From an uncultured Chryseobacterium sp. (GTDB lineage: Bacteria; Bacteroidota; Bacteroidia; Palsa-965), in contig CAYUTR010000003.1 in NCBI GenBank assembly GCA_964447465.1, positions 1-50,735 on the forward strand: a DNA stretch of 50,735 nucleotides, given 5' to 3'. Within the stretch, counting starts at the first letter, position 1; each line of letters begins with the position of its first letter. Shown piece after piece: positions 4,349 through 48,998 of the stretch. The translations under genes and the position numbers were made by a program. Below the pieces are notes generated by a model. The model was not told the DNA's origin, did not search any database, and saw only the letters and a program-made list of their open reading frames with translations.

Positions 4349-4353
4349 CGTTG

Positions 4354-4427
4354 AGCCACTTTTCGGATTCGAACCGAAGACCTGCCGTTTACAAAACGGC
4401 TGCTCTAACCAACTGAGCTAAAGTGGC
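4354..4427 (-). tRNA. tRNA-Thr(TGT)
   Basis: Reverse complement GCCACTTTAGCTCAGTTGGTTAGAGCAGCCGTTTTGTAAACGGCAGGTCTTCGGTTCGAATCCGAAAAGTGGCT folds as a full cloverleaf; CCA is not encoded. Confidence 0.95.
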
Positions 4428-25170: not shown

Positions 25171-25240
25171 ATCACCCCCGTATTTATACGGGGGTGATAA
25201 AGGGGGGTATTTATACTGGTTTTTACCCGTATTTATACGT
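25171..25240. promoter_or_regulatory. Three copies of the GTATTTATAC operator core
   Basis: Cores at 25180, 25207 and 25229; the first lies within a palindrome with 13-bp arms; same motif as at 37427 and 38109. Confidence 0.75.
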
Positions 25241-25375
25241 GGGTAAAAACGGGCATTTTAGAGGTTTTTAACTGAAAATGAACCTACTACGAAAGGACTA
25301 TTTGGTTCATTTCATCAGTTTATTGAAACATTTGTTATTACTTTGCGTTATATAACATACTCTACCTACTAAGTC

Positions 25376-25732
25376 ATGCAAACCTACGCGACAGCGCCTA
25401 AGTCATGCTCAATTTTCCGAATCAAAGATGAACTCGGTGCAAATCATGCTCAATTCTATGATCAGGGGTTGGCAATTGGTAAAAAGGTGAATTGTTCTTT
25501 AGAAAAAGGAGAACAGGTCGAAATCTCATTCGTAGGAATGCCAGAACCAAATTTTCCATTTCTTAGTGGACTTTTTGGATTAATTTTTCATCAATATTCG
25601 GTTGAAACTGTGAAAAATTTACTTCATTTGTCACACGCAACCGCCGATGTGAAAGCTGATATTGAAGATGTGAGATGGCGTGCTGATAACATTGAGTTTC
25701 ACAATGAAGTTCTCTATTCGGAAAAAGAGTAG
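25376..25732 (+). CDS. STAS-like (DUF4325-type) protein
   Basis: DQG..I...V...L..GEQVEISFVGM....PFLSGLFG pattern; upstream of a PIN gene. Confidence 0.65.
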   Translation: MQTYATAPKSCSIFRIKDELGANHAQFYDQGLAIGKKVNCSLEKGEQVEISFVGMPEPNFPFLSGLFGLIFHQYSVETVKNLLHLSHATADVKADIEDVRWRADNIEFHNEVLYSEKE

Positions 25733-25749
25733 AGTTTGCAATCCATTAT

Positions 25750-26358
25750 ATGATTTCTCCATTACCTGCAGTTCCGTCCGCTGGATTTACTTACTTATTG
25801 GACACCAACGTTTGGCTTAAGGTATTTGACTTTCCTGCTGATTTGTTCGGAGATGACTCAAAGTTCCCAAAAGAAAAAAAGCAGCGTTACGCCGAGCATC
25901 GCGGCTACTATAGTTTCGTGAGAGGCTTTACACTCACATTCGCCCCTCAGATTATTTTGCCAAGTATAGCGTTGTCCGAAATTGTTAACGTGTACATGCG
26001 GTCAAAGATGTTTCTCATCTATCAAAAAAAACACGGTTTTCATAAACAGTACAAAGAACACTATCGACCTAGTTGGGAACATCGGAGAGACTTTAAAAGG
26101 ATTCAAAATGGGATGCTTAGTTATGAGAGATGCTGCATACAAACAAATGATGGATTTGGCACCGCTCACACCATTTCCTCCGCGTTGAAGTATAATTCAA
26201 ACAAATTAGATTTTGCAGATCATTATATGTACGCGATTGCTAAGAAAAGAAATTGTGTGCTTGTAACTCATGATGCCGATTACAGCGTGTGTAACGACAT
26301 TCCAATCCTTACTTTGAATCAGAACATGCTTCCTAAACCAGGTAGCGCTTCAGCATAA
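25750..26358 (+). CDS. PIN domain ribonuclease
   Basis: YLLDTNVW, ALSEIVN, LDFADHY, LVTHDADY. Confidence 0.88.
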   Translation: MISPLPAVPSAGFTYLLDTNVWLKVFDFPADLFGDDSKFPKEKKQRYAEHRGYYSFVRGFTLTFAPQIILPSIALSEIVNVYMRSKMFLIYQKKHGFHKQYKEHYRPSWEHRRDFKRIQNGMLSYERCCIQTNDGFGTAHTISSALKYNSNKLDFADHYMYAIAKKRNCVLVTHDADYSVCNDIPILTLNQNMLPKPGSASA

Positions 26359-26712: not shown

Positions 26713-27531
26713 CTATCTGTGGCGAGACTTGCCCCTTGCTTTGCGCTTCGATTGCAGGCGATTGAGGGCTTTTTCAACATCAAAGTCCAACTGTACACCT
26801 AATGTTCCGAAGCGAAACTTTCTATTGTCTTGGACAACTCCATATAGCTTTCCTCCGCGCACATAAACCTCCAAGTTCTTTCTTTGGAGTTGAACGAGGA
26901 AGTCCTCTTGCGATCTCGCTTGCGCCTGACATTCGAGCACTGCTTCACGAACTTTCTCGTGAATCGATACTTTCTTCATTCGTTGTTTCATCTGCACTTC
27001 CTGGTCGTTCACGCGCAGTTTCGATTTTCTACCATGTGCAACCACAGACTTCGTGAGTTCTCTAAAATTCGTGATTTGGTGCTGTTGAACTTGCTTCTTA
27101 ATATCGCCGAACTCTCCGCGGCTCATGCGCATTGCTTTCCCGGTCGTATCGACGCCTGACACCAGAAGATGTACGTGGTAGTGTTCTTTATTGTAATGTG
27201 GTATCGCCAAAACTTTCGCACCGCGGACGCCAACGCGCAACCGGATATACTCTCTAGTCATCTGTTCCATCTTCTCGGCAGTGATGTGTCGCGCGTCATC
27301 TTTGTGCCAGGATAGAATCTCATGCGTCATGGTCACACTATCTTTTCTGCGGAGTACACGCCCTACCTCAAGCTCTTTGAGCTGATTCACCCAACTGTCA
27401 ATTTTGTTTCCTTTTAGATTATGCGCAACGACAAATCCCTCGCGACCGGACAGTCGATCGTTGTCGTGCAGCATGTATTCAATGAGCTGACGATAGGTTT
27501 TATTTTTCCTTGATTTTATCTTGACGATCAT
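26713..27531 (-). CDS. MOBP-type relaxase
   Basis: N-terminal LIEY; HEILSW; HUH motif HYNKEHYHVHLLVSG. Confidence 0.88.
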   Translation of the reverse strand: MIVKIKSRKNKTYRQLIEYMLHDNDRLSGREGFVVAHNLKGNKIDSWVNQLKELEVGRVLRRKDSVTMTHEILSWHKDDARHITAEKMEQMTREYIRLRVGVRGAKVLAIPHYNKEHYHVHLLVSGVDTTGKAMRMSRGEFGDIKKQVQQHQITNFRELTKSVVAHGRKSKLRVNDQEVQMKQRMKKVSIHEKVREAVLECQAQARSQEDFLVQLQRKNLEVYVRGGKLYGVVQDNRKFRFGTLGVQLDFDVEKALNRLQSKRKARGKSRHR

Positions 27532-28072
27532 GTGAGGTGATCAGTTGCAGCAAGTGAGCTTTAATATCAAGAGATTGGTTCAGTGCATCGCATAAAAGTT
27601 GTTCGAGTTTGGGTGGACTACTCAAATGTTCACGAACACTCGTTTCAAGCAGTATGATTCGTGCTTCAATGCTTTCGATCTTCTGATCTCGTTGCCAGAA
27701 GTATTTCTCACGAACTCCAGCGAGAGCCTGAATCTCATTGGCGCATTGAGCCAATAGCTGCTCCAGGTGAGCGAGAAACGCACGATCCGGCACGATATAC
27801 GTCTCAGTGAGATATGCCACAGCAGAGGCGCGTATAAACGCGGCCAGAGTCATTTTGTGTTTGCGTGCACCTGCAGCAATGCGCTCGTAGGTTCCATCTG
27901 CGCGAGAGAAGGCGACAATAACCTCTGGATTTTCTTTGAGCTGTTGTCGGCGATGGTTGTAATGGTAGGTCTTCCAATAACCGCGTTTCGCAGCGGCGAT
28001 CTCGTCAGGCGATCCTGTTTCCAGAATTCCCAACGCATCAAGATGCTTCCATAGACCACTACGCTTTCGCAT
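27500..28072 (-). CDS. Relaxosome accessory (MobC-like) protein
   Basis: RHH-like ARKHKMTLAAFIRASA and CANEIQALA; lies between the coupling protein and the relaxase. Confidence 0.5.
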   Translation of the reverse strand: MRKRSGLWKHLDALGILETGSPDEIAAAKRGYWKTYHYNHRRQQLKENPEVIVAFSRADGTYERIAAGARKHKMTLAAFIRASAVAYLTETYIVPDRAFLAHLEQLLAQCANEIQALAGVREKYFWQRDQKIESIEARIILLETSVREHLSSPPKLEQLLCDALNQSLDIKAHLLQLITSHDRQDKIKEK

Positions 28073-29519
28073 TAGATCGCTTTGATTGCGGTAATGGCAG
28101 GATTGGGACAACGCCGAATCCTGCACCGACCATTCGCGGAGGCGTGAGTTCACTGTGTGCGCGGAACGTCGAGTCCTTATAATAAGGACGAAGCTTCGCT
28201 TTGATCGGTGGATTGTGACCACAAATGATCAGCGCTTCGCTCGATGACATCGTACGGATTTCCGATGCGCTCATAAGGCTACGAGTAATAGTCTTGCCTT
28301 TCTCATCCTTGTAATCGAATTCACCCATCAGATCGGAGAGTTCTTTCGCCGTATCAAGTGGTTGTCCCGTGAAGTACATTTTCGCAAAGCAGTTAGCGCG
28401 GATGGCTTCTGCATCTTCGCGTCCATAAATGCTCACAAGTTGATTGTAGTCCTGCACAAGTAGCATAATTCCTGCGCGGCTCTTACGTACGTTCGCAATC
28501 GACAGTTGTAGATTTGGAAAATGTAACGAGGACGCTTCGTCGATCAGGAAGAATATATCGAGTTCGTTTTCTTTCGGTATTCGTGACAGGACATATCCGA
28601 AGAACTGTTCCAGGAAGAGCGAGGTAAGTATTGAGTAATACTTGACGTCACCTACTGACGTTTGCAGGAAGAGCGCTGTTGGACGTTTACGGAAGTTGTC
28701 GAAGGAAATGGAATCGACGCTCGTCACTTGCGCGACAGCGTTATCTCCAAGCAAAGTGAGAGAAGCAAGGCAGGTCGCGATAACACCGCTTCGTACCTTC
28801 TCGTCCAGGCCAACGAATGATTTGTAAGCAAGCCAGAGAGCAGGATCATTTTGTGCGTGCTTTGCATACAGCTGGTCCACGGCATCCGGATCGCCGCTCA
28901 TGCTATTAAGTAAGTAGCGCAGATTCGCAAGGTTGCGATAGGGTTCCGCTTCGAGATGCAGTGTCGCAATAAGCGCGGCAAGCAATGAACTCGCTTGGGA
29001 ATTCCAGAACGGGTCTTTTTTCCCTTTGCCGAGCGCGTTGTCAATAAGCATTGATGCGATCTTCTGCATTTCTGAAGATGTCTTTGCGCGTGCAACAGGA
29101 TTGTACCCGCAGGAGATTTCCGGCTTGGCGAAGTTGAGTACGCGCACGTCGTATCCACGGTCAACAAGCGACGCTGCGCTTTTCTCAAACAGTTCCCCCG
29201 ACGGATCATGCACAACAAAACTGCCTCGCATTTTGTAGAGCGACGGCAACAGCACGACGCTCGATTTGCCGACGCCAGTTCCACCGATGATGAGCGCATT
29301 GGAGTATGCATCTTTCGCACTGAGAGAACGCCTACCGGTCAAACAAAAACCCGCTGCATTCCTACTGAGTAATTCTCGTTCGCTGATAAAGTTTGAAGTA
29401 TGTGCGTGTTTGCGCTTGCCGACACCCGAGATGAATGTCTCAAGCGTTTCGCCGAGCAGCCCGAACAGGGATTCGAGCAGTGAGATTATAAGTTCAAGGA
29501 TTTTTTCGATTAGGATCAT
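28059..29519 (-). CDS. Type IV coupling protein (TraG/VirD4 family)
   Basis: GGTGVGKS, VVHDPSGEL, GYNP, DPFW, LIDEA, VQDYNQL..IYG. Confidence 0.92.
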   Translation of the reverse strand: MILIEKILELIISLLESLFGLLGETLETFISGVGKRKHAHTSNFISERELLSRNAAGFCLTGRRSLSAKDAYSNALIIGGTGVGKSSVVLLPSLYKMRGSFVVHDPSGELFEKSAASLVDRGYDVRVLNFAKPEISCGYNPVARAKTSSEMQKIASMLIDNALGKGKKDPFWNSQASSLLAALIATLHLEAEPYRNLANLRYLLNSMSGDPDAVDQLYAKHAQNDPALWLAYKSFVGLDEKVRSGVIATCLASLTLLGDNAVAQVTSVDSISFDNFRKRPTALFLQTSVGDVKYYSILTSLFLEQFFGYVLSRIPKENELDIFFLIDEASSLHFPNLQLSIANVRKSRAGIMLLVQDYNQLVSIYGREDAEAIRANCFAKMYFTGQPLDTAKELSDLMGEFDYKDEKGKTITRSLMSASEIRTMSSSEALIICGHNPPIKAKLRPYYKDSTFRAHSELTPPRMVGAGFGVVPILPLPQSKRSNAKA

Positions 29520-33615: not shown

Positions 33616-34539
33616 ATGAGCCTACTTGTAGTCGGAACCATGGCATTTGATGCCATTGAAACACCTTTCGGAAAGACAGATAAAATTATAGGCGGCGCCG
33701 CTACCTATATCGCACTGGCTGCTTCCTACTTTTTCAAGAACATCAATATCGTGTCGGTGGTTGGTGGCGACTTCCCGGAGGAGTCGATGGACATGCTCAA
33801 AAAGCACGGAGTGAAACTCGATGGTGTGCAGATCAAGAAGGATCAGAAATCATTTTTCTGGTCGGGACGTTATCATACGGACATGAATTCCCGTGATACA
33901 CTCGCAACAGAACTCAACGTACTTGCCGACTTCGATCCTATCGTTCCGGAGCATTGCAAAGAAGTTGATTTCCTGATGCTCGGAAATCTCATGCCGCAGG
34001 TTCAGCAAAAAGTAATTGCTCAACTAAACAAACGCCCGAAACTTATTGTGCTCGACACGATGAATTTCTGGATGGATACGGCGCATGATGAACTCGTGAA
34101 AACAATTTCACAGGTTGACGTGCTCACAATCAACGATGGCGAAGCACGCCAGCTCTCCGGAGAATATTCTCTCGTAAAAGCAGCTCAGAAAATTCTTTCG
34201 ATGGGTCCGAAAGTACTCATCATCAAAAAAGGCGAACACGGCGCATTGCTCTTCAACAAGGAACAGGTGTTCTTCGCTCCTGCCCTGCCATTGGAAGATG
34301 TGTTTGATCCAACCGGTGCGGGCGACAGTTTCGCTGGTGGATTCATCGGCTACCTCGCAGAAACAAAAGATATTTCTTTCGACAACATGAAGCGCGCCAT
34401 CATCTTCGGATCGGCAATGGCTTCGTTTACGGTTGAGAAATTCGGTGTAGAGCGTCTTGTTGGATTAACACAAGACCAGGTTGATGAACGAGTGCAGGAG
34501 TTTATTGACTTAGTTCAGTTTGATATTTCGTTGGTGTAA
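33616..34539 (+). CDS. PfkB-family carbohydrate kinase
   Basis: GGAATY, INDGEA, DPTGAGDSFAGG; TATATTTG promoter box near 33583. Confidence 0.93.
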   Translation: MSLLVVGTMAFDAIETPFGKTDKIIGGAATYIALAASYFFKNINIVSVVGGDFPEESMDMLKKHGVKLDGVQIKKDQKSFFWSGRYHTDMNSRDTLATELNVLADFDPIVPEHCKEVDFLMLGNLMPQVQQKVIAQLNKRPKLIVLDTMNFWMDTAHDELVKTISQVDVLTINDGEARQLSGEYSLVKAAQKILSMGPKVLIIKKGEHGALLFNKEQVFFAPALPLEDVFDPTGAGDSFAGGFIGYLAETKDISFDNMKRAIIFGSAMASFTVEKFGVERLVGLTQDQVDERVQEFIDLVQFDISLV

Positions 34540-34560
34540 ATTTTCGGCGGCCTGCGGCGC

Positions 34561-34729
34561 TAACCACATAGGGCCATAGAAACATAGACATTATTAAAAG
34601 CGTGATGCGCAACCGCATCCGACATAGAACACAATAGAGAGACGTAAACTCTATGTGCACTATGACGGACGCCTTAAGGCGTCGCGCTTAACAAGTTTAG
34701 AGCTATGAATCTATGATCCTATGTGGTTA
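34561..34729. repeat. Imperfect palindromic (REP/MITE-like) element between convergent genes
   Basis: Terminal inverted repeat TAACCACATAGG/CCTATGTGGTTA with internal CATAG/CTATG reiterations. Confidence 0.6.
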
Positions 34730-34739
34730 AAAAATCGGG

Positions 34740-35387
34740 CTACAGATACAGCCCATTCTTAATCGCATACATCACAATCCCCACCGTATTTTTTGCTTTT
34801 ATTTTCTGGAGAACACTTTCCCGATGGCCCTCCACTGTCCGCTGACTAAGATTCATCTTCTCTGCAATTTCCCTCGCACTTAGTTCCTGGCACAGCAACT
34901 GAATCACCTGCAATTCGCGCTCGGTAAGTCCGACCTTTTCAAAATTCGGTTTGATTTTTTTCCCCAGCATCAATCGTTGCACAAGCGCGTGCGATACACG
35001 TTCGTCGAGATAGTATCCCGTATCCATCACCGAGAAAATTGCATCAACCAACGTTTCTATCGGATCGTTCTTCACAAGAAAACCATGTGCCCCACTTTCA
35101 ATCATGTGCGCGATGATCGCTTCTTCATTGTGCATCGTGAGAATCAGCACGCGTATTCCGGGATGAGTTGCTTTAAGATACGCAAGCGTTTCTGTGCCGT
35201 CCATCTCCGGCATTTCAAGATCAAGCAGAACAACGTCCGGCTTCTTCTTCTTCAGTTTCTCCACCAATTCTTTCCCGTTACCCGCTTCGATCATCACGTT
35301 GAGCTCTTCGAATTCACTCAACAGGGAAATCAGTCCCGCACGGAACATAACCTGATCATCAACTACTGCGATGTTATATTTTACCAT
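34740..35387 (-). CDS. NarL/LuxR-family response regulator
   Basis: VVDD, LLDLEMP, LTM, FLVK receiver domain; LTERELQVI...RTVEGHR HTH. Confidence 0.96.
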   Translation of the reverse strand: MVKYNIAVVDDQVMFRAGLISLLSEFEELNVMIEAGNGKELVEKLKKKKPDVVLLDLEMPEMDGTETLAYLKATHPGIRVLILTMHNEEAIIAHMIESGAHGFLVKNDPIETLVDAIFSVMDTGYYLDERVSHALVQRLMLGKKIKPNFEKVGLTERELQVIQLLCQELSAREIAEKMNLSQRTVEGHRESVLQKIKAKNTVGIVMYAIKNGLYL

Positions 35388-36190
35388 ACTGCCGGTACTT
35401 CAATGATGACTTCTGAATCTGATTGTCCCTTACTCAGATATTGTATTGTGCCGTTTACGAGTTGTACCCGACTTTGGATACTCTTTAATCCAACTCCTTT
35501 TTGAGATTGTGCAAGTTCCGACGCGGCTTCATTCGTAATCCCAATTCCGTTGTGTCTGATCTGTACACCCAACGCTGTATCCGTCGCGCGTACCGCTATT
35601 CCAATCGCCGTGGCTTGAGAATGCTTGAGAATATTATTCACGATCTCACGTACTGCACGGTACAATTGAAGTTCTACTCGTGGCGCGAGCCGGCGATCGT
35701 TGGTTTCTATTACACAATCCATCTTCACTTGTCCCGATGCGTTGATCTGTCTGCACATTTCCGCCAGACCTTTATCAAGACCAAGCTTCACCAATGTAGG
35801 CGGCATCAGATCGTGTGCAATTCCGCGAACGGTCTGAATGCTTTCATCTACCATGCTCAGACTTTCCTTCACAAGCTCTTCTGTTTTTGCTTTGTCAGCC
35901 GCATTACGCGAGAGCTTCGTCATCTGCAGGCGGATTACATTCAGCAACGTTCCCACATCATCGTGAATATTCTTCGCAATTTTTTCACGCTCCTGTTCTG
36001 CAATTTCCAATGAAGCGTTAAGCATGTCTTTCTGGTGACGGTTTTCTGCGGCCTGTATGTGCATCTGTTGCGCCATTACTTTGCGCTGATATAATGCAAC
36101 GAAGAGCACGATGGACACAACGAGTATCAACATCGCACAGGTGCCAATGGCAACCAGAAGTCCTACTGGAATTGCTTCCTGGCTTTCCAT
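35381..36190 (-). CDS. HisKA_3-type histidine kinase with one TM helix and no sensor domain
   Basis: EREKIAKNIHDDVG, EIVNNILKH, HNGIG, GVGLKSIQSRV. Confidence 0.93.
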   Translation of the reverse strand: MESQEAIPVGLLVAIGTCAMLILVVSIVLFVALYQRKVMAQQMHIQAAENRHQKDMLNASLEIAEQEREKIAKNIHDDVGTLLNVIRLQMTKLSRNAADKAKTEELVKESLSMVDESIQTVRGIAHDLMPPTLVKLGLDKGLAEMCRQINASGQVKMDCVIETNDRRLAPRVELQLYRAVREIVNNILKHSQATAIGIAVRATDTALGVQIRHNGIGITNEAASELAQSQKGVGLKSIQSRVQLVNGTIQYLSKGQSDSEVIIEVPAVW

Positions 36191-36825
36191 AGTCCGATTC
36201 CGATTAATAAATTAAGTAGTATTACCAAAACCGAATGAACTCCCCACCAGAGGATTTCCATCAGATCCATTGAGTTTGTAATCAAATAATTGCTCGACAC
36301 AAAAATGAATATATCTCCACCGAAGTAAATCATGATGCCTGTGATGATCCAGAACTGAGGCGTTGCAGTAATGTTTGCATATACCATGTCTTTCATCATC
36401 GTATAAAGCATCACGATTGAGTAAAGCAGAAAAATAACCGCGGCGATACCGATTGAAAAGTTATCCATCTGCATCGCGCCCTGCAAAATAATATCAGTCA
36501 CAACCACGCCAATGAAAAGAACGTTCACGGCAATTATCGCTACCTGAATTTTCAGACGTCTGATTTCGCCCACAAAGAATGTGCTGATCAGTGTGAACTC
36601 TAGAATTGTGTACACCCTGGGAACATAGGCACTAAAGGCATGTGATTCACGATATAACTCTGTCAGTACATCTGCAGAAAATGCAACAACCGCCAATAGA
36701 ATCAAACATCGCAATCCGTAAGAACACTGCTTAAAACGCAATGCCCCGATCCCAACCGGAACCAACGAAGACCAAAATGCAACATCAATCAGTACTGTAA
36801 GTGTTTGTGCTGCTCCAGGAGACAT
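36163..36825 (-). CDS. Polytopic (~7 TM) membrane protein; putative receptor subunit
   Basis: Seven hydrophobic segments, YTILEF, FWIITGIMIYFGG; overlaps the kinase start. Confidence 0.8.
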   Translation of the reverse strand: MSPGAAQTLTVLIDVAFWSSLVPVGIGALRFKQCSYGLRCLILLAVVAFSADVLTELYRESHAFSAYVPRVYTILEFTLISTFFVGEIRRLKIQVAIIAVNVLFIGVVVTDIILQGAMQMDNFSIGIAAVIFLLYSIVMLYTMMKDMVYANITATPQFWIITGIMIYFGGDIFIFVSSNYLITNSMDLMEILWWGVHSVLVILLNLLIGIGLWKARKQFQ

Positions 36826-36948
36826 TCGTTGTTTGTTATAACCCGCCACGAAGATATGATTCATACGTTCCTGCATTTAACCGCTTACTACTTCTCCAAA
36901 AAAAGGACGTCCCATCAATTGCTTGACGGGACGTTTCCCCCCTTTTAA

Positions 36949-37266
36949 TTAGCCCGCAAGCGGGCTATCATCACCGTCGCACCATGGCGGGCAAGGTTTT
37001 ACTCTTTCCGCAACAATTCCACTAGTCATATCATTCTCATCCGCGCTTACACCTACGAATACTAATTCCTTGTTTCCGCTGTCGTCCAGCCCGTAATACA
37101 CTCTGAAACCTACACACCCTGTTTGACCAAGAATCGCGTTGATAATATTCTTTCCAATGAAGTGTGCTTTAGCGCCGGATGCGCCTTCGGAGTTTCTGTA
37201 GTTTGCAGTCATTGCTGCACCTTCTGCGAGTGTAATTACTTCTCCTTCTTTTCCGTCAAATGCCAT
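36949..37266 (-). CDS. Small PCPPxC protein, copy 1
   Basis: MAFDGKEGEV...GCVGFRVYY...ERVKPCPPWC; paralog at 37644. Confidence 0.88.
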   Translation of the reverse strand: MAFDGKEGEVITLAEGAAMTANYRNSEGASGAKAHFIGKNIINAILGQTGCVGFRVYYGLDDSGNKELVFVGVSADENDMTSGIVAERVKPCPPWCDGDDSPLAG

Positions 37267-37426
37267 AAGTTGTTTTGTTTAATTGTTGTACACTGATTGA
37301 GTTAGAGGGTCTGTTTCGTTTTTCTTAAAAATAGGTATTTCAAAAATTACCTTTTGAATGTTGCTACAAATGCCTTTTTCACACAAACTTTAGGATCAGA
37401 TGTTTAACACAAAAAGCGCGCTTTTT

Positions 37427-37469
37427 ACCCCCGTATTTATACGGGTAAAATCCCGTATAAATACGGGGG
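37427..37469. promoter_or_regulatory. 43-bp double-palindrome operator
   Basis: ACCCCCGTATTTATACGGGTAAAATCCCGTATAAATACGGGGG, identical to 38109-38151. Confidence 0.85.
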
Positions 37470-37490
37470 CGCAAAACACATATTTGCTCT

Positions 37491-37600
37491 TTTGTGCCAA
37501 CACATAACGCGAAGCTGCGGCTGAGTTCATCGTCCGAACGATTCCCGCAGGATTAATAATGGCAGAAGGACGGTAATACCGTCCTTCTGCTTTTCTCTTT
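37491..37600 (+). ncRNA. Candidate small RNA divergent from the operator
   Basis: CATATTTG box at 37479-37486, nested stems, and a perfect terminator stem (37562-37590) with a T-rich tail on the plus strand. Confidence 0.4.
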
Positions 37601-37643
37601 CCGGATTGGCTCTCCGGATGTTATGTCTATTAGCTGAAATTCC

Positions 37644-37973
37644 TCATATGTTTCTCCACGCGCCAGCTAAAACTCCGGTAGTCCCGCAATATGGTGGACA
37701 CGGACGGATGCGTTCAACTATCACTCCGTTTTCCAAGTCCTCCTCATCAGCATTGACACCCACCAGCACAAGACTCTTTTTTCCGTCTTCAATTGCATAA
37801 TAAATTCTGATCCCAACGCATCCGGTTTGATTCAGAATACTGTTGACTTTGTTTACACCAACTGTGTGAGCCCGTACTTCCTCTTCATCGGGGTTCTCTG
37901 TACTCCAGTTTATGAGCCATGATTCAGCGTCTTCTAGAGAAACTACTTCTCCTTCATTTCCATCAAATGCCAT
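37644..37973 (-). CDS. Small PCPPxC protein, copy 2
   Basis: MAFDGNEGEV...GCVGIRIYY...ERIRPCPPYC. Confidence 0.88.
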   Translation of the reverse strand: MAFDGNEGEVVSLEDAESWLINWSTENPDEEEVRAHTVGVNKVNSILNQTGCVGIRIYYAIEDGKKSLVLVGVNADEEDLENGVIVERIRPCPPYCGTTGVLAGAWRNI

Positions 37974-38108
37974 AATAGTTTTGTTTTAGGTGGTTAATAA
38001 ATGATTTGCTTGAAATGAAAGATAGTTCAATTCACCGATTACTGCAATGCAAAAAGGCTTTCGTACTTCAATTATTTTCAGACTGTTGTCGAAAAAAACA
38101 TACATAAC

Positions 38109-38172
38109 ACCCCCGTATTTATACGGGTAAAATCCCGTATAAATACGGGGGTGCAAAAAAGGGTATTAGTAC
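38109..38172. promoter_or_regulatory. Second copy of the 43-bp operator plus a degenerate third core
   Basis: Identical 43-mer at 38109-38151; GTATTAGTAC at 38163-38172. Confidence 0.85.
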
Positions 38173-38251
38173 TCTTGTAGCAACACACAATGCTAAAGTA
38201 CATTTGAATTCAAAGTTCAGATGTGATTACTTCGATAGACTCAGTACAGGC

Positions 38252-38446
38252 ATGGAGAGCAACGAGCATTTACGTGGACACCACATCAACATCAATAAAT
38301 CGCGCGAAGTGATGTACTGGTCCTATATGCTGGAGTGTGAGAAAGAAGATCTCATCAACGCGGTTGTCCGCATCGGCACCTGTGCAAAAATGGTAGATGA
38401 CTATCTCGTGATGAACCGCAGAAAAATTTCTTCGAATGGCCAATAG
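38252..38446 (+). CDS. DUF3606-like small protein
   Basis: ININKSREVMYWS..L......L.NAV.RIG; TACATTTG promoter box at 38199-38206. Confidence 0.65.
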   Translation: MESNEHLRGHHININKSREVMYWSYMLECEKEDLINAVVRIGTCAKMVDDYLVMNRRKISSNGQ

Positions 38447-38783
38447 AACTTCTGCCGGCGTTGCGTTCGACGATGATGTTGTTCAGAAAATATGGGAGAA
38501 GGCGCGACCGATTGCCGGACAAGATCCTGCACGCGTTCGTAAAGACATCTGCGGCGCCATCATTCATCGCGAAGATTTTAATCGCCAATCAAAAATACTT
38601 TCATTCGGTTGGGAAATCGATCACATCAAGCCGCTTTCAAAAGGCGGAACAGACGATTACTATAATCTGCAACCACTTCATTGGGAAAACAATCGCGGCA
38701 AAGGAGATGAACATCCTTCGTGGAATTGTTTGGTGCAGGGAGATGAAAAAGAGAATGGGTATGTGAGGGTGGTGAGCGGCTAA
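38436..38783 (+). CDS. HNH endonuclease
   Basis: KDICGA...GWEIDHIKPLSKGGTDDYYNLQPLHWENNRGKG. Confidence 0.9.
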   Translation: MANRTSAGVAFDDDVVQKIWEKARPIAGQDPARVRKDICGAIIHREDFNRQSKILSFGWEIDHIKPLSKGGTDDYYNLQPLHWENNRGKGDEHPSWNCLVQGDEKENGYVRVVSG

Positions 38784-39001
38784 TAGTCGAAATCAAAAAA
38801 ATCTTTCAGCGGAACATCCAAAGCTTTACTGAGTTTCAGAAAAGTTGATGCCGTAATATTTTCCGTTCCTCCTTCCAATCTTGCTAAAGCTGAACGCTCC
38901 ATGTTACAAAGATCTGCGAGGCTTTGTTGCGTCATCTCGCGCTCCTTTCTTAATGAGGCGATACGCTTTCCCAGTAACTGAAAAAATTTCTTTTCCTGCA
39001 T
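38780..39001 (-). CDS. XRE-family HTH regulator
   Basis: MTQQSLADLCNMERSALARLEGG; paralog of 14900-15121. Confidence 0.9.
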   Translation of the reverse strand: MQEKKFFQLLGKRIASLRKEREMTQQSLADLCNMERSALARLEGGTENITASTFLKLSKALDVPLKDFFDFDY

Positions 39002-45646: not shown

Positions 45647-46591
45647 TCAATACTCCCTCCTCCAAAAAACAAATTCCCCGCCTTCATCTCCTTCTAGTTT
45701 CAGATGCCCATACCGCGGAGCCTGTTCTGTATCCTGGTAAACTTTTGCATTCACATCTGCTGCAAGTTCAAGCACCGTAAAAGGTGTTTGTCTGTCCTTG
45801 AGAAATTCATAGATGTGTAATGCAAACGGACTGTGATCATCTTTCCCATCTGTAACAGGCTTGAGTCTTCCGGATGAATAAGCTTCACGCGAAGGGATTT
45901 GCTGAATTTCATGATACATCGACCACTTTACCTGTTCATCGGGAGTGAACCCGGGGAACTGCGTCACGTTCACGTTAATCACAACAGCGCTGTCTCCTCG
46001 GTCGGCTATGGTTGCAACTGTTGGTGCAGGTTTGGATTTGCGGTCATCGAAAATAGTTGAGCCGTAACATGCGTCTACAAACAACACAATGTGCATCGCC
46101 GAACTGTTCACAATTCCGTTGAGTTTTAAATCCATGCACGATACCAATGAAGTTGCATCGCGTCCTCCGTCGCACGGAATCCAGAATCCAATGCGCGTAT
46201 CCGGATGCTGATATCCGTGACCGGCGAAATAAATAATCAGGTTATCGCTATCCCGGACTTTCAACGCAAGAAACCGGAGTGTGTCCAGAATGTTCTCCCG
46301 CGTTGCAAGCGAATCTACAAGCAGGATGCTGTGTTTCGGAGAGAACTGGTATTCTGTTGTAAGCGTGGAGTGAATGTACTCCATGTCTCCGCGTGCATTA
46401 CGCAGATCTTTCCACACTGCATTCGAATCGTAGTTGCTGATGCCAATTCCAAGAAACCAATTCACCGATGTGCGATCCGGAAACATTCCTGCACGCGATA
46501 ACAATGTCTGATTACGCGCAAGACCGTCACTTGCGTTTGCCAATGCGACAAACACAACGATCAATCCGAAAAAACATTTCGCAACGCGCAT
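45647..46591 (-). CDS. Secreted caspase-family (C14) peptidase
   Basis: Signal peptide; LGIGISNY, YFAGHG, VDACYG, HSPFA. Confidence 0.9.
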   Translation of the reverse strand: MRVAKCFFGLIVVFVALANASDGLARNQTLLSRAGMFPDRTSVNWFLGIGISNYDSNAVWKDLRNARGDMEYIHSTLTTEYQFSPKHSILLVDSLATRENILDTLRFLALKVRDSDNLIIYFAGHGYQHPDTRIGFWIPCDGGRDATSLVSCMDLKLNGIVNSSAMHIVLFVDACYGSTIFDDRKSKPAPTVATIADRGDSAVVINVNVTQFPGFTPDEQVKWSMYHEIQQIPSREAYSSGRLKPVTDGKDDHSPFALHIYEFLKDRQTPFTVLELAADVNAKVYQDTEQAPRYGHLKLEGDEGGEFVFWRREY

Positions 46592-46727
46592 GTTATTTAC
46601 TTTTTTCATACTCAGCACAGATCGCAAAGCGATCCGCCGTGCCGCGTGGGTTTAGTACTTCTCCGTTTCGCCGTCTCTCCGTGTAGAAGCGAGCTTGTCC
46701 TGAGCGTAGTCGAAGGGCAGGCAGCCA

Positions 46728-48998
46728 CTATTTCTCGGCGCTCAACACCTGCAACTTCCTCACGCTCCACATCTCACTCGTTACCGCCGGAGGATCTTCC
46801 GTAAAACTTCGTGTACGTGAACCATAATTGCGCATCATGTTTGTAAGCGGACTTACTGCACCCTTCGATGGGCCGCGTTCAAGCACTCCGTCTGATTTGA
46901 AAATATCGGGAGGCAGCGGCGTTTCAGAAGCTACCATGAAATACGTGTCGTACCCATATGGTTTGGAAACTGTAAACCCAAGCGGATCGCCACCCGGAGT
47001 TTTCTCCAGCGGAATTGTACGCTTGCTCTGAAATTTTCCACGGTACTCCACTTTGTTTCCGTCGCCGAGTTCCGGTCGCGGATACAACAGCACCATTTTC
47101 CCGGTTGCATCCACTGCAAACACATTGATATAACGCTGACAGTAAAATGGTTTGAAGTTGATCGTATCGAGTACGAGAATCAGCTCGAGACGTTCTCCTC
47201 CATAAACTGTTTCACCCGGCTGAACAATTCCTCCGTCCTTGTGTTTCAATCCTAAGTAGTATGGAAACTCATCGGGAGGAGAAGCAAGATTCATCCATGC
47301 ATTCAGTTTGCCGAGACGGATCGCGTAACTCGCAATAGAGTCTGCACCTTTCAAGGCCTGATCGCCGCCAATCCAGCTGGAACGTAATGGCAATCCTAAA
47401 TTAGATGCAGTATCGGTTTTAGAAACGTTCGGACGGATCAACGCATATTCTAATCTTCCGTTTGTTCTTCCCGCGATGATATAATTCGCCGACATCGGAT
47501 CGCTCGTGAAATCAATTGCAGAGTTATCTGTTCCAGCACCAATCTTCGAATGCAATGCCGCATCAAATTCTTTCGTTGGAGGAAGCTGCAGAGAAACAGT
47601 TGCGCCTTTCCGGATTTCTTTCTTCAGTTCCTTTTCATTGAGCGCAGTCAGTGTTTTGATTTTACTTTTCCCTGCCTGCGAAATCATCCAGTGATCGATG
47701 TGATACTGAATCACATATTCCGGAACAGCTTCTGTCTGATCTTTCACCTGAACACAATGTCCGGAGGTGAATAGATTTTGAACAGGCATGATTGCAGCCG
47801 TCAACTCTGAGTTCGTCATTGTTGCAGTTGGAGACCACAACAAAAGTGTGGGGCGATCGGGTGTTACCCAGTTGAGCATTTCAACAATATCTCCGGGATG
47901 AAATGAGCTGATATCGCCGGTCACAATTTTAGCAACACTGGTTCCGATTCCCGCAACGGTTACAACTTCGATTGTGTCTTTTCCATCGGGACGAGCAAAA
48001 CGGCATCCGGGATAAATCGATAATTCAAATCCGCCGCGAAGGCGAACAAATCCGTCTACAACTTCCTGCACACCTACAATCGTGCGCGTCTGCACGTCGC
48101 TTACAGCTGTTCCGAAAAGCGTAGCATTCTTCCTTGCTTCATTCGCGCCAAGAATCGGATCCTGGAATTTCGGACCGCCGTCTGATTTCAGATTCGCAAC
48201 GATGCGTGTGAAAATCATAGCCGCACTTTCGTTTGTCGTTGCGCTGTTGATTGCTTTGATGAGCGCAAGTGTAAATGCTCCGTGAGAAATTCCATCGGCG
48301 TCTACAGCTTCTTTCGCAGTCTGATCGCGTTGCGCTGCACTGAACACCAATGCGCCGCGCTCTTCAATGTTTGGCGATTTGCTATCGTCGTTCGCATCAA
48401 AGTTCAACGGTGGCGCCTGGCGCGAAATGTATTCAACCGGTAAACTGTTACCACGTGCAATTCCTCCGCTGTGACAGCAATCATAAATAATAGTGAGCGT
48501 AACTCCCGCATCAATAAATTTATTGAACAGTGGAGCAAGTTCTTTGTTGCGGATATCCCACAAGTCTGAAGGAACCATTGTCTGATCCTGTCCGGTTCCA
48601 TCGTAGGAACGGCTGTTCTTCACTTGCGATCCGTGACCGGCGTAATAAATCAGAACAACATCGCCGGCCTGTGGCATACATTTTCCGTACAGCTCATTGA
48701 TTGAATTCAGAATTCCATCGTGCGTTGCCTGTTTGTTCATGAGCGTATCGATATTCTGCTCCATGAATCCGTAACGGGCCATGCATAGTTGCTTCATCGA
48801 ACGCGCATCGTTCACACATCCCTCCAGGTTTTTCCATCCTGCACGTTCTTCTGCGCCACGAGCTGCAAATGCGGCAGGAGTTTGTTTGGTCTCTTCATAC
48901 GTATCAATACCGATGATGAGCGCGCGCTTCACACCGGCATTGAGCGTAGTGCCGAACAACACGATTGCAATTGCGAAGATGAAATTCCTGTTTTTCAT
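46728..48998 (-). CDS. Secreted caspase-family peptidase with a C-terminal DUF4384-like domain
   Basis: Signal peptide; RALIIGIDTY, LEGCVND, YYAGHGSQ, YDCCHSG, HGAFT, QDP; YINVFAVDATGKMVLLYP...PYGYDTY. Confidence 0.92.
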   Translation of the reverse strand: MKNRNFIFAIAIVLFGTTLNAGVKRALIIGIDTYEETKQTPAAFAARGAEERAGWKNLEGCVNDARSMKQLCMARYGFMEQNIDTLMNKQATHDGILNSINELYGKCMPQAGDVVLIYYAGHGSQVKNSRSYDGTGQDQTMVPSDLWDIRNKELAPLFNKFIDAGVTLTIIYDCCHSGGIARGNSLPVEYISRQAPPLNFDANDDSKSPNIEERGALVFSAAQRDQTAKEAVDADGISHGAFTLALIKAINSATTNESAAMIFTRIVANLKSDGGPKFQDPILGANEARKNATLFGTAVSDVQTRTIVGVQEVVDGFVRLRGGFELSIYPGCRFARPDGKDTIEVVTVAGIGTSVAKIVTGDISSFHPGDIVEMLNWVTPDRPTLLLWSPTATMTNSELTAAIMPVQNLFTSGHCVQVKDQTEAVPEYVIQYHIDHWMISQAGKSKIKTLTALNEKELKKEIRKGATVSLQLPPTKEFDAALHSKIGAGTDNSAIDFTSDPMSANYIIAGRTNGRLEYALIRPNVSKTDTASNLGLPLRSSWIGGDQALKGADSIASYAIRLGKLNAWMNLASPPDEFPYYLGLKHKDGGIVQPGETVYGGERLELILVLDTINFKPFYCQRYINVFAVDATGKMVLLYPRPELGDGNKVEYRGKFQSKRTIPLEKTPGGDPLGFTVSKPYGYDTYFMVASETPLPPDIFKSDGVLERGPSKGAVSPLTNMMRNYGSRTRSFTEDPPAVTSEMWSVRKLQVLSAEK

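Follow-up and report, generated by a model that had tools for sequence, protein, structure and literature searches.

Tandem palindromic operators in front of autoregulated two-component operons are well known and of a textbook kind. In ComQXPA-type quorum-sensing loci, a multi-pass membrane kinase of the HisKA_3 class and a NarL-family regulator are combined with an adjoining small-protein gene, and the locus is highly variable between close relatives. The output domain of NarL prefers inverted heptamers placed 2 bp apart and binds them as a dimer (PMC4549865). In Bacillus subtilis, activation of the liaI promoter raises the expression of liaGFSR by read-through and produces positive feedback (PMC3567932). 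Here we describe a 43-bp double palindrome (43-mer) that occurs twice in a 50,735-nt stretch of DNA of an uncultured Chryseobacterium sp. (contig CAYUTR010000003.1 of assembly GCA_964447465.1; hereafter the window), in front of two tandem paralogous genes for small PCPxxC-family proteins. These genes belong to a cassette that also encodes a membrane protein, a histidine kinase and a NarL-family response regulator. The reading that we favor, and hold to be reasonably probable on comparative grounds, is that the 43-mer is a tandem operator for the regulator of the cassette, which would activate both PCPxxC paralogues and a divergent DUF3606-HNH gene pair, with autoregulation and with five further promoters under its control.

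The two copies, at 37427-37469 (array A) and 38109-38151 (array B), are exact, with 0 mismatches in the window and 0 matches in 100 dinucleotide-preserving shuffles. Neither is assigned to a strand, and both lie upstream of minus-strand PCPxxC genes. Array A (units 37430-37445 and 37452-37467) ends 160 nt upstream of the ATG of the first gene (motif PCPPWC), and array B (units 38112-38127 and 38134-38149) ends 135 nt upstream of the ATG of the second (PCPPYC) and is also 100 nt upstream of the divergent DUF3606 gene (ATG 38252). Each 43-mer consists of CCCGTATTTATACGGG and CCCGTATAAATACGGG, inverted relative to each other and with centers 22 bp apart, a distance that places both sites on the same helix face. 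All four units are 16 bp long and read CCCGTAT-TT-ATACGGG or its mirror with an AA center, i.e., seven complementary pairs around a 2-bp center. The first-pass annotation, made from the sequence of the window, had seen two inverted palindromes 22 bp apart, and this stands; the 6-4-6 form that it gave for them (CCCGTA-N4-TACGGG) is better described as 7-2-7 (CCCGTAT-TT/AA-ATACGGG).

The 7-2-7 geometry and the A/T center are those of the NarL sites of Escherichia coli, and the adjacent regulator is a member of the same NarL/FixJ family. Unlike in the NarL comparison, two to three units stand in phase here, ~22 bp apart. Two features of NarL/FixJ operators were found, a short inverted-repeat geometry and a linked GerE/LuxR-type regulator, the latter in the genus and beyond. 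A site of the E. coli NarL regulon proper was rejected, as the half-site differs and the regulator reaches none of the NCBIfam equivalog cut-offs (126.5 bits with the NarL model versus 250 needed). A LexA-like SOS box was rejected as well; the motifs given for Bacteroidetes, GGA-N5-TCC and CTAA-N5-TTAG (PMC8565304), do not fit the unit.

When the upstream regions of the two paralogues were aligned, the longest identical run was 43 and the next longest 7. The flanks agree at 56/93 positions distally and at 66/135 toward the gene (49-60%), the two coding sequences at 187/315 positions as DNA and about 48% as protein, and the identity between the two copies ends exactly at the ends of the units. 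With a background identity of ~60%, a run of 43 bases is not a chance survival, and the initial observation that the element is kept at both positions in spite of diverged coding and flanking DNA was confirmed. In a related genome (G007; the present one is G000 among the genomes compared), the orthologous operator differs at about 8/43 positions in a hand alignment versus 0/43 between the paralogous copies, whose flanks are more diverged than orthologous DNA of G000 and G007 (70-74% identical). The two sites have therefore evolved in concert, in agreement with the earlier proposal of maintenance by selection or gene conversion. Selection for one optimum is supported by near-identical unlinked copies in unrelated flanks (C27:12545 and C27:6753) and by the loss of identity exactly where the units end, and short-tract gene conversion may also lie behind the identity. 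Altogether, the comparisons support the 43-mer as a real and conserved, putative regulatory DNA site.

The cassette is encoded on the minus strand. PCPxxC copy 1 (36949..37266) specifies 105 aa and its tandem paralogue, copy 2 (37644..37973), 109 aa. They are followed by the gene of a multi-pass membrane protein with 6-7 hydrophobic segments (36163..36876; 237 aa), which is a conserved partner of the kinase, by the histidine kinase gene (35381..36190; HisKA_3 and HATPase_c domains, one N-terminal membrane helix) and by the gene of the NarL/FixJ-family response regulator (34740..35387), composed of a receiver and a GerE/LuxR-type helix-turn-helix (HTH) domain (Response_reg, 1.4e-26; GerE, 3.2e-16) and proposed here as the binder of the arrays. 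The membrane-protein and kinase genes share 28 bp, and a similar overlap exists in G007; since the kinase has only one membrane helix, the two proteins probably form one sensor together. Divergent from the cassette, on the plus strand, are the DUF3606 gene (38252-38446) and, directly after it, an HNH-domain gene (38436-38783), a pair that adjoins the cassette in many relatives; an XRE-type HTH gene follows at 38780-39001. PADLOC, run on 14 proteins of the cassette and the putative regulon, gave only weak HTH-type or receiver-type matches, on the regulator.

Two regulator dimers, phosphorylated and supplied by the gene located 2 kb downstream, would bind side by side, possibly cooperatively, on each 43-mer, ahead of the core promoters of the two PCPxxC paralogues, and would activate rather than repress transcription. 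From array B the bound dimers would also activate the divergent DUF3606-HNH pair. Partial read-through past the hairpin behind copy 1 into the membrane-protein, kinase and regulator genes would provide positive autoregulation, and the same regulator would control the five further promoters of the genome that bear two to three units of the motif. Compared with ComQXPA, the likeness is in layout only: no modifying enzyme or secretion signal was seen here, and the PCPxxC protein is predicted to be a folded domain of 100 aa. The likeness to liaIH-liaGFSR comprises the HisKA_3 kinase, the NarL-type regulator and the accessory membrane protein, as well as small target genes that come first, in the same orientation and behind a regulated promoter, and are followed by a hairpin. 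The layout found here is in these respects LiaFSR-like, and read-through at this locus is proposed by analogy. In contrast, no homology of the PCPxxC and membrane proteins to LiaI, LiaH/PspA or LiaF was found (no Pfam or NCBIfam match), the phylum is Bacteroidota, and at least seven promoters are putatively addressed, whereas liaIH is described in PMC3567932 as the only relevant target of Lia.

Promoters of this phylum carry a TTTG element at -33. Their sigma-A -7 box is TAnnTTTG at -12 to -5 (PMC9723704). A promoter of this type is predicted for PCPxxC copy 1 on the minus strand (37384..37413), with TTTG at 37413-37410 and AAAGTTTG at 37391-37384, which has one mismatch to TAnnTTTG. With this promoter, the units of array A would be centered near -60 and -82 on one helix face, as is the case for an upstream activator. 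In the direction of the DUF3606 gene, -7-like boxes begin at distances of 19 and 48 nt from array B. A terminator-like hairpin follows PCPxxC copy 2 (37562..37590, minus strand; 13 pairs, -23.9 kcal/mol) and separates the transcription units of the two paralogues, and a second terminator-like hairpin with a T run lies between copy 1 and the membrane-protein gene (36907..36934, minus strand). With a hairpin after each of them, each paralogue would form its own transcription unit, with read-through into the membrane-protein, kinase and regulator genes being possible. Just before the ATG of copy 2 (37974-38000) is an A-rich leader (…ACCACCTAAAACAAAAC…) that recurs in the orthologues of G007 and G008, and a box resembling TTTCTATTTTTAG is located upstream of other PCPxxC orthologues; both may be translation-initiation or leader signals.

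The palindromes could alternatively act at the level of structure, with an 18-bp hairpin in RNA or DNA that would terminate or attenuate transcription or mark a processing site. The RNA fold of the 43-mer has an energy of -33.2 kcal/mol (z = -6.2), and for the minus strand copy B was classed as terminator-like in a consensus scan. However, copy B is situated between divergent genes and would have no transcript to end there, and ahead of copy A another strong hairpin already stands directly behind the preceding gene. In relatives, the units frequently occur as direct repeats or in groups of three (G018, G038, and locus L013 of G007), arrangements that cannot form the long hairpin. An Rfam scan of 36800-38400 at E<=10 returned 32 matches, 0 of them at the gathering score; the best were microRNA and snoRNA models that fit the hairpin, and the top microRNA reached 34.2 bits versus a gathering score of 60. 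We consider a structural role of this kind highly improbable.

Binding of a protein to these sites is also favored by the distribution of the unit in the genome, which was scanned as the 5.08-Mb assembly of 544 contigs. The 38-base core is present in two exact copies and one with 3 mismatches (contig C27), with 0 matches of the reversed control. CCGTA-N4-TACGG occurs 13 times in the assembly, 12 of them being the W-centered unit. With 37 occurrences versus 32.6 expected from base composition, the bare 10-bp core GTATWWATAC is not enriched, and cores at most 30 bp apart were found at only 7 loci, with 17 units in total and two to three at each. Besides arrays A and B, these are C3:25172-25245 in the window (three units, no strand assigned; 130 nt upstream of a DUF4325/PIN gene pair, 25376-26358, plus strand, inside a mobilizable element), C27:6753-6799, which differs from the 38-base core at 3 positions, C27:12545-12590, which has 26 consecutive bases in common with the 43-mer including the TAAAAT spacer and stands in front of the gene of a 186-aa protein, and the three-unit arrays C49:14353-14423 and C302:4416-4488. 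From the 17 clustered units, oriented by their centers, the consensus is ACCCCCGTATTTATACGGG; it is slightly asymmetric, with A at -10 in 15/17 units and a longer C run on one side, and the 43-mer agrees with it, in both units, wherever the consensus is well conserved.

As read from open reading frames (ORFs), all seven arrays lie between genes, with the start of one or more genes facing each; four or five are between divergent genes, the others are in tandem context and none is between convergent genes. The C49 array is overlapped by two long ORFs that were taken as spurious or over-extended. The genes faced encode mostly unannotated small proteins, and also DUF4325/PIN, DUF4747, Fic and DUF3467 proteins. 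On this distribution the arrays mark what is putatively a small regulon and not a dispersed repeat. A genome-wide scan for the palindrome, which the first-pass annotation had suggested as a means of defining the regulon, thus yields a candidate set of seven promoters, and its concern that the 43-mer might be a free dispersed repeat with no link to promoters was not borne out. Two of the arrays, 25172-25245 and C27:12545-12590, are inside mobilizable elements near relaxase genes and upstream of cargo genes. Mobile-element cargo may be wired to a host regulator through such arrays.

These two arrays in mobilizable elements would also suit a mobile or recombinogenic palindromic repeat, either one resembling repetitive extragenic palindromes or miniature inverted-repeat transposable elements (REP/MITE), or a pair of inverted repeats enclosing an invertible or excisable segment with copy 2 inside, with the identity reflecting recent spread or conversion. 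The two 43-mers do count as both direct and inverted repeats, each of them being nearly self-complementary, and 0/43 differences exceeds what the tolerance at other sites would require. The chance of such an origin is nevertheless very small given that there are only seven loci, none between convergent genes, with a unit number of two to three, that five of the seven stand without a second copy in their vicinity, and that the position of the array is kept in orthologous loci of species with other unit sequences. No recombinase gene adjoins the cassette, the integrases being >29 kb away, and many copies, a location at 3' ends or between convergent genes and lack of a promoter link, as in REP/MITE, were not found for the arrays.

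If the 43-mer is an operator for the regulator of the cassette, site and cassette should be found together in other species. Relatives were compared in a sample of 41 genomes, in which the tallies of the PCPxxC and membrane proteins include the unpublished G013; unit types were read by eye from printed upstream regions, for the genus as well as for the class. Searched as an exact 14-mer, the motif was present in 5/41 genomes (12 times in G000, 3 in G007, 1 each in G008 and G031, 5 in G038), with a single match of the reversed control overall. A PCPxxC homologue was found in 13/41 genomes and the membrane protein in 15/41. The full cassette of PCPxxC, membrane protein, kinase and regulator genes is syntenic in G007, G008, G023, G014, G009, G024 and G018 and is present in a more distant form in G004, G036, G020 and G038; in five of these relatives the DUF3606-HNH pair is divergent beside it.

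Ten loci of the genus showed two to three repeated units, ~22 bp apart, at 130-200 nt before the PCPxxC ATG. The type of unit changes from lineage to lineage: it is GTAT-type, as in the present genome, in G007 and G008, CCGTA(A/G)AAACACCTG in G014 and G018, and AAC(G/A)GGTGAAAACACC(C/T)GTT in G023, G009, G001 and G024, and G004 has three copies of CGTGAAAAATCACG. The paralogous cassettes of G007, G009, G024, G021, G016 and G025 have further variants of the unit or none. In G038, which belongs to another family, two copies of TCCGTATAAAC stand 22 bp apart ahead of the PCPxxC gene of that genome, and a GTAT-type pair directly follows the regulator gene, so that the same type of unit is present on both sides of the cassette. 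Sites unlinked to the cassette are shared as well: G007 keeps two of those of the present genome at orthologous loci (the operon of a 63-aa protein and a lipoprotein, and the DUF3467 region), and about five further loci of G014 carry the type of unit located upstream of its cassette.

The position and architecture of the array are thus kept while its sequence changes between species and paralogues, which indicates that the binder must be inherited with the cassette. As the GerE-type regulator is the only cassette protein with a DNA-binding domain, it would be the most likely binder, and the region of its recognition helix varies among cassettes with different units, although the pairing of unit type with helix was read by eye beside the alignment and not computed as a table. 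The link to the adjacent regulator made in the first-pass annotation accordingly gains comparative support from the conserved cassette, the constant position of the array and its co-variation by lineage.

The arrays might, on the other hand, be operators for another transcription factor encoded elsewhere, either a different NarL-family regulator or an unrelated HTH protein. The binder was named by sequence comparison and not directly, five of the seven arrays lie away from the cassette, and the XRE-type HTH gene is located nearby. Moreover, G031 has a two-unit site of the same motif (locus L005, around 1495-1545) between an aminotransferase-like gene and a STAS-like/sensor gene pair, and no PCPxxC or membrane-protein homologue was found in that genome; other regulators may therefore read similar sites. 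Even so, we judge this alternative rather unlikely: the unit changes with the cassette at a constant position across species and paralogues, for which a co-inherited binder is needed, and G000 has only one cassette of this kind. As for the neighboring genes, the XRE gene was beside the cassette in none of the 11 relatives' loci searched, and the DUF3606-HNH pair is missing from the cassettes of G008, G018 and G004, which keep their arrays.

The tandem architecture upstream of such cassettes extends beyond the genus. In a sample of the class (301 genomes of 167 genera, with the unpublished G200 included in the tally), the PCPxxC profile matched 52 genomes and 33 genera. Of 30 loci returned, 27 were analyzed, leaving out G000, G007 and G200. 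Apart from the tallies mentioned, nothing stated here depends on the unpublished G013 and G200. A kinase match was located at most 1.5 kb downstream of the PCPxxC gene in 22/27 loci, and when 20 loci were extended, a regulator match was downstream in 18, being full length in 16. Many of the upstream regions have two to three in-phase palindromes with other half-sites, for example TAGGGAG..CTCCCTA, GGGGTAA..TTACCCC, TGTCGG..CCGACA and GGTAC..GTAC. CGTR-N4-YACG was counted 8 times in 8,100 bp of upstream sequence (4/27 loci) versus 0 times in 80,680 bp elsewhere in the same loci, and GTR-N4-YAC had a density of 2.96/kb upstream versus 0.59/kb in the rest of the class loci. By a looser array test, adopted once the data had been seen (a 12-mer recurring, directly or inverted, at an offset of 20-27 with no more than one mismatch), arrays were detected in 10/27 class and 7/13 genus regions, compared with 12/2700 and 8/1300 shuffles and 7/257 other tiles. 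Tandem units are thus clearly enriched upstream of the cassettes, but by these counts the architecture is not universal or not always detectable.

The assignment of the 43-mer to the regulator of the cassette has to be weighed against several observations in addition to the site of G031. By eye, G036 and G020 have zero or one unit upstream of the PCPxxC gene, and the absence in G036 is one such point; in the class sample, nothing clear was seen in the upstream regions of G237, G247, G253, G100 and G055. A strict array test, which required a pair of perfect 6-4-6 palindromes with arms alike and a spacing of 20-27 bp, detected arrays in no more than 2/27 regions of the class and 2/13 of the genus, both of the latter being this window's own, with 0/2700 and 0/1300 shuffles and 0/257 other tiles as controls, and two of the ten class matches of the looser test are hairpins of upstream genes and not operators. 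Since the strict test was mostly negative, the array is degenerate or non-evident in many cassettes. The alignment of the regulators revealed no simple residue-to-base code between recognition helices and unit types, and co-variation of unit and cassette at the level of lineages is confounded by phylogeny. The half-site CCCGTAT also differs from that of an engineered NarL site, TACCCCT-AA-AGGGGTA, given in PMC4549865. Finally, the distance from the array to the nearest -7-like box varies from 19 to >80 nt across the seven loci, and the geometry of activation is for this reason a prediction only.

The cassette itself evolves rapidly. In the region 33616-38783, with PfkB as a single-gene baseline (95-97% identical to G007, G008 and G014), the regulator is 61-76% identical to its counterparts in these genomes, the kinase 58-81%, the PCPxxC protein 54-63% and the membrane protein 33-38%, and identity of the DNA falls from 87% to 65-76% right after PfkB. 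The cassette therefore diverges much faster than its PfkB neighbor.

Neither the PCPxxC protein nor the membrane protein belongs to a Pfam or NCBIfam family. In the Protein Atlas, taken as a lead only, the former was nearest to hypothetical proteins and the latter to clusters that bear the automatic names YhhN or lysoplasmalogenase and lack a common Pfam. The PCPxxC family has 1213 cluster representatives at E<=0.001 among 1.84 billion, and many members are of ~210-290 aa with two copies of the domain. Both cysteines are near-invariant, and Q47, G52, Y56, G71, D78 and P92 are also conserved. The structure model is confident (predicted local distance difference test, 88), and its fold has no convincing neighbor, with a best E of 0.3 in Foldseek against the PDB and a best Z of 3.4 in VIA-align against 48,161 chains.

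As for the rest of the window, most of its left part (160-32870) looks like an integrative mobilizable element with defense-type cargo. Two tyrosine-recombinase genes flank a tRNA-Thr (4353-4427), and the content includes a C5 DNA methylase, a Zeta-toxin domain protein, RadC, an RloB/AAA_21 pair, a kinase-PP2C-vWA trio, a relaxase (26713-27531) and a coupling protein (28059-29519). To the right of the cassette, two adjacent caspase-domain (Peptidase_C14) proteins are encoded at 45647-48995, one of them of 756 aa with DUF4384.

When the literature was searched for a similar system in Bacteroidetes, nothing relevant was found among the papers listed, and one may still be in print; as far as this search shows, the motif, the regulon and the module appear to be undescribed. 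Binding sites of transcription factors are poorly mapped in environmental Bacteroidota, and the present locus offers a putative operator, a candidate regulator, a putative seven-promoter regulon and a conserved four-gene module. Because the sequence of the operator varies by cassette while its architecture is kept, these loci also make up a data set for the co-evolution of NarL-type regulators with their sites and for the avoidance of cross-talk between paralogues. It is conceivable, although we regard it as quite unlikely, that the module of PCPxxC protein, YhhN-like membrane protein, HisKA_3 kinase and NarL-type regulator is a self-inducing signaling circuit of Bacteroidota, in which PCPxxC would be the signal or a feedback partner, a private operator would insulate each cassette from its paralogues, and the operator of the host would be copied by mobile elements, which would in this way couple their cargo to the signal. 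If this were true, the fast divergence of the cassette and its cassette-specific operators would represent a diversification of specificity of the pherotype kind.

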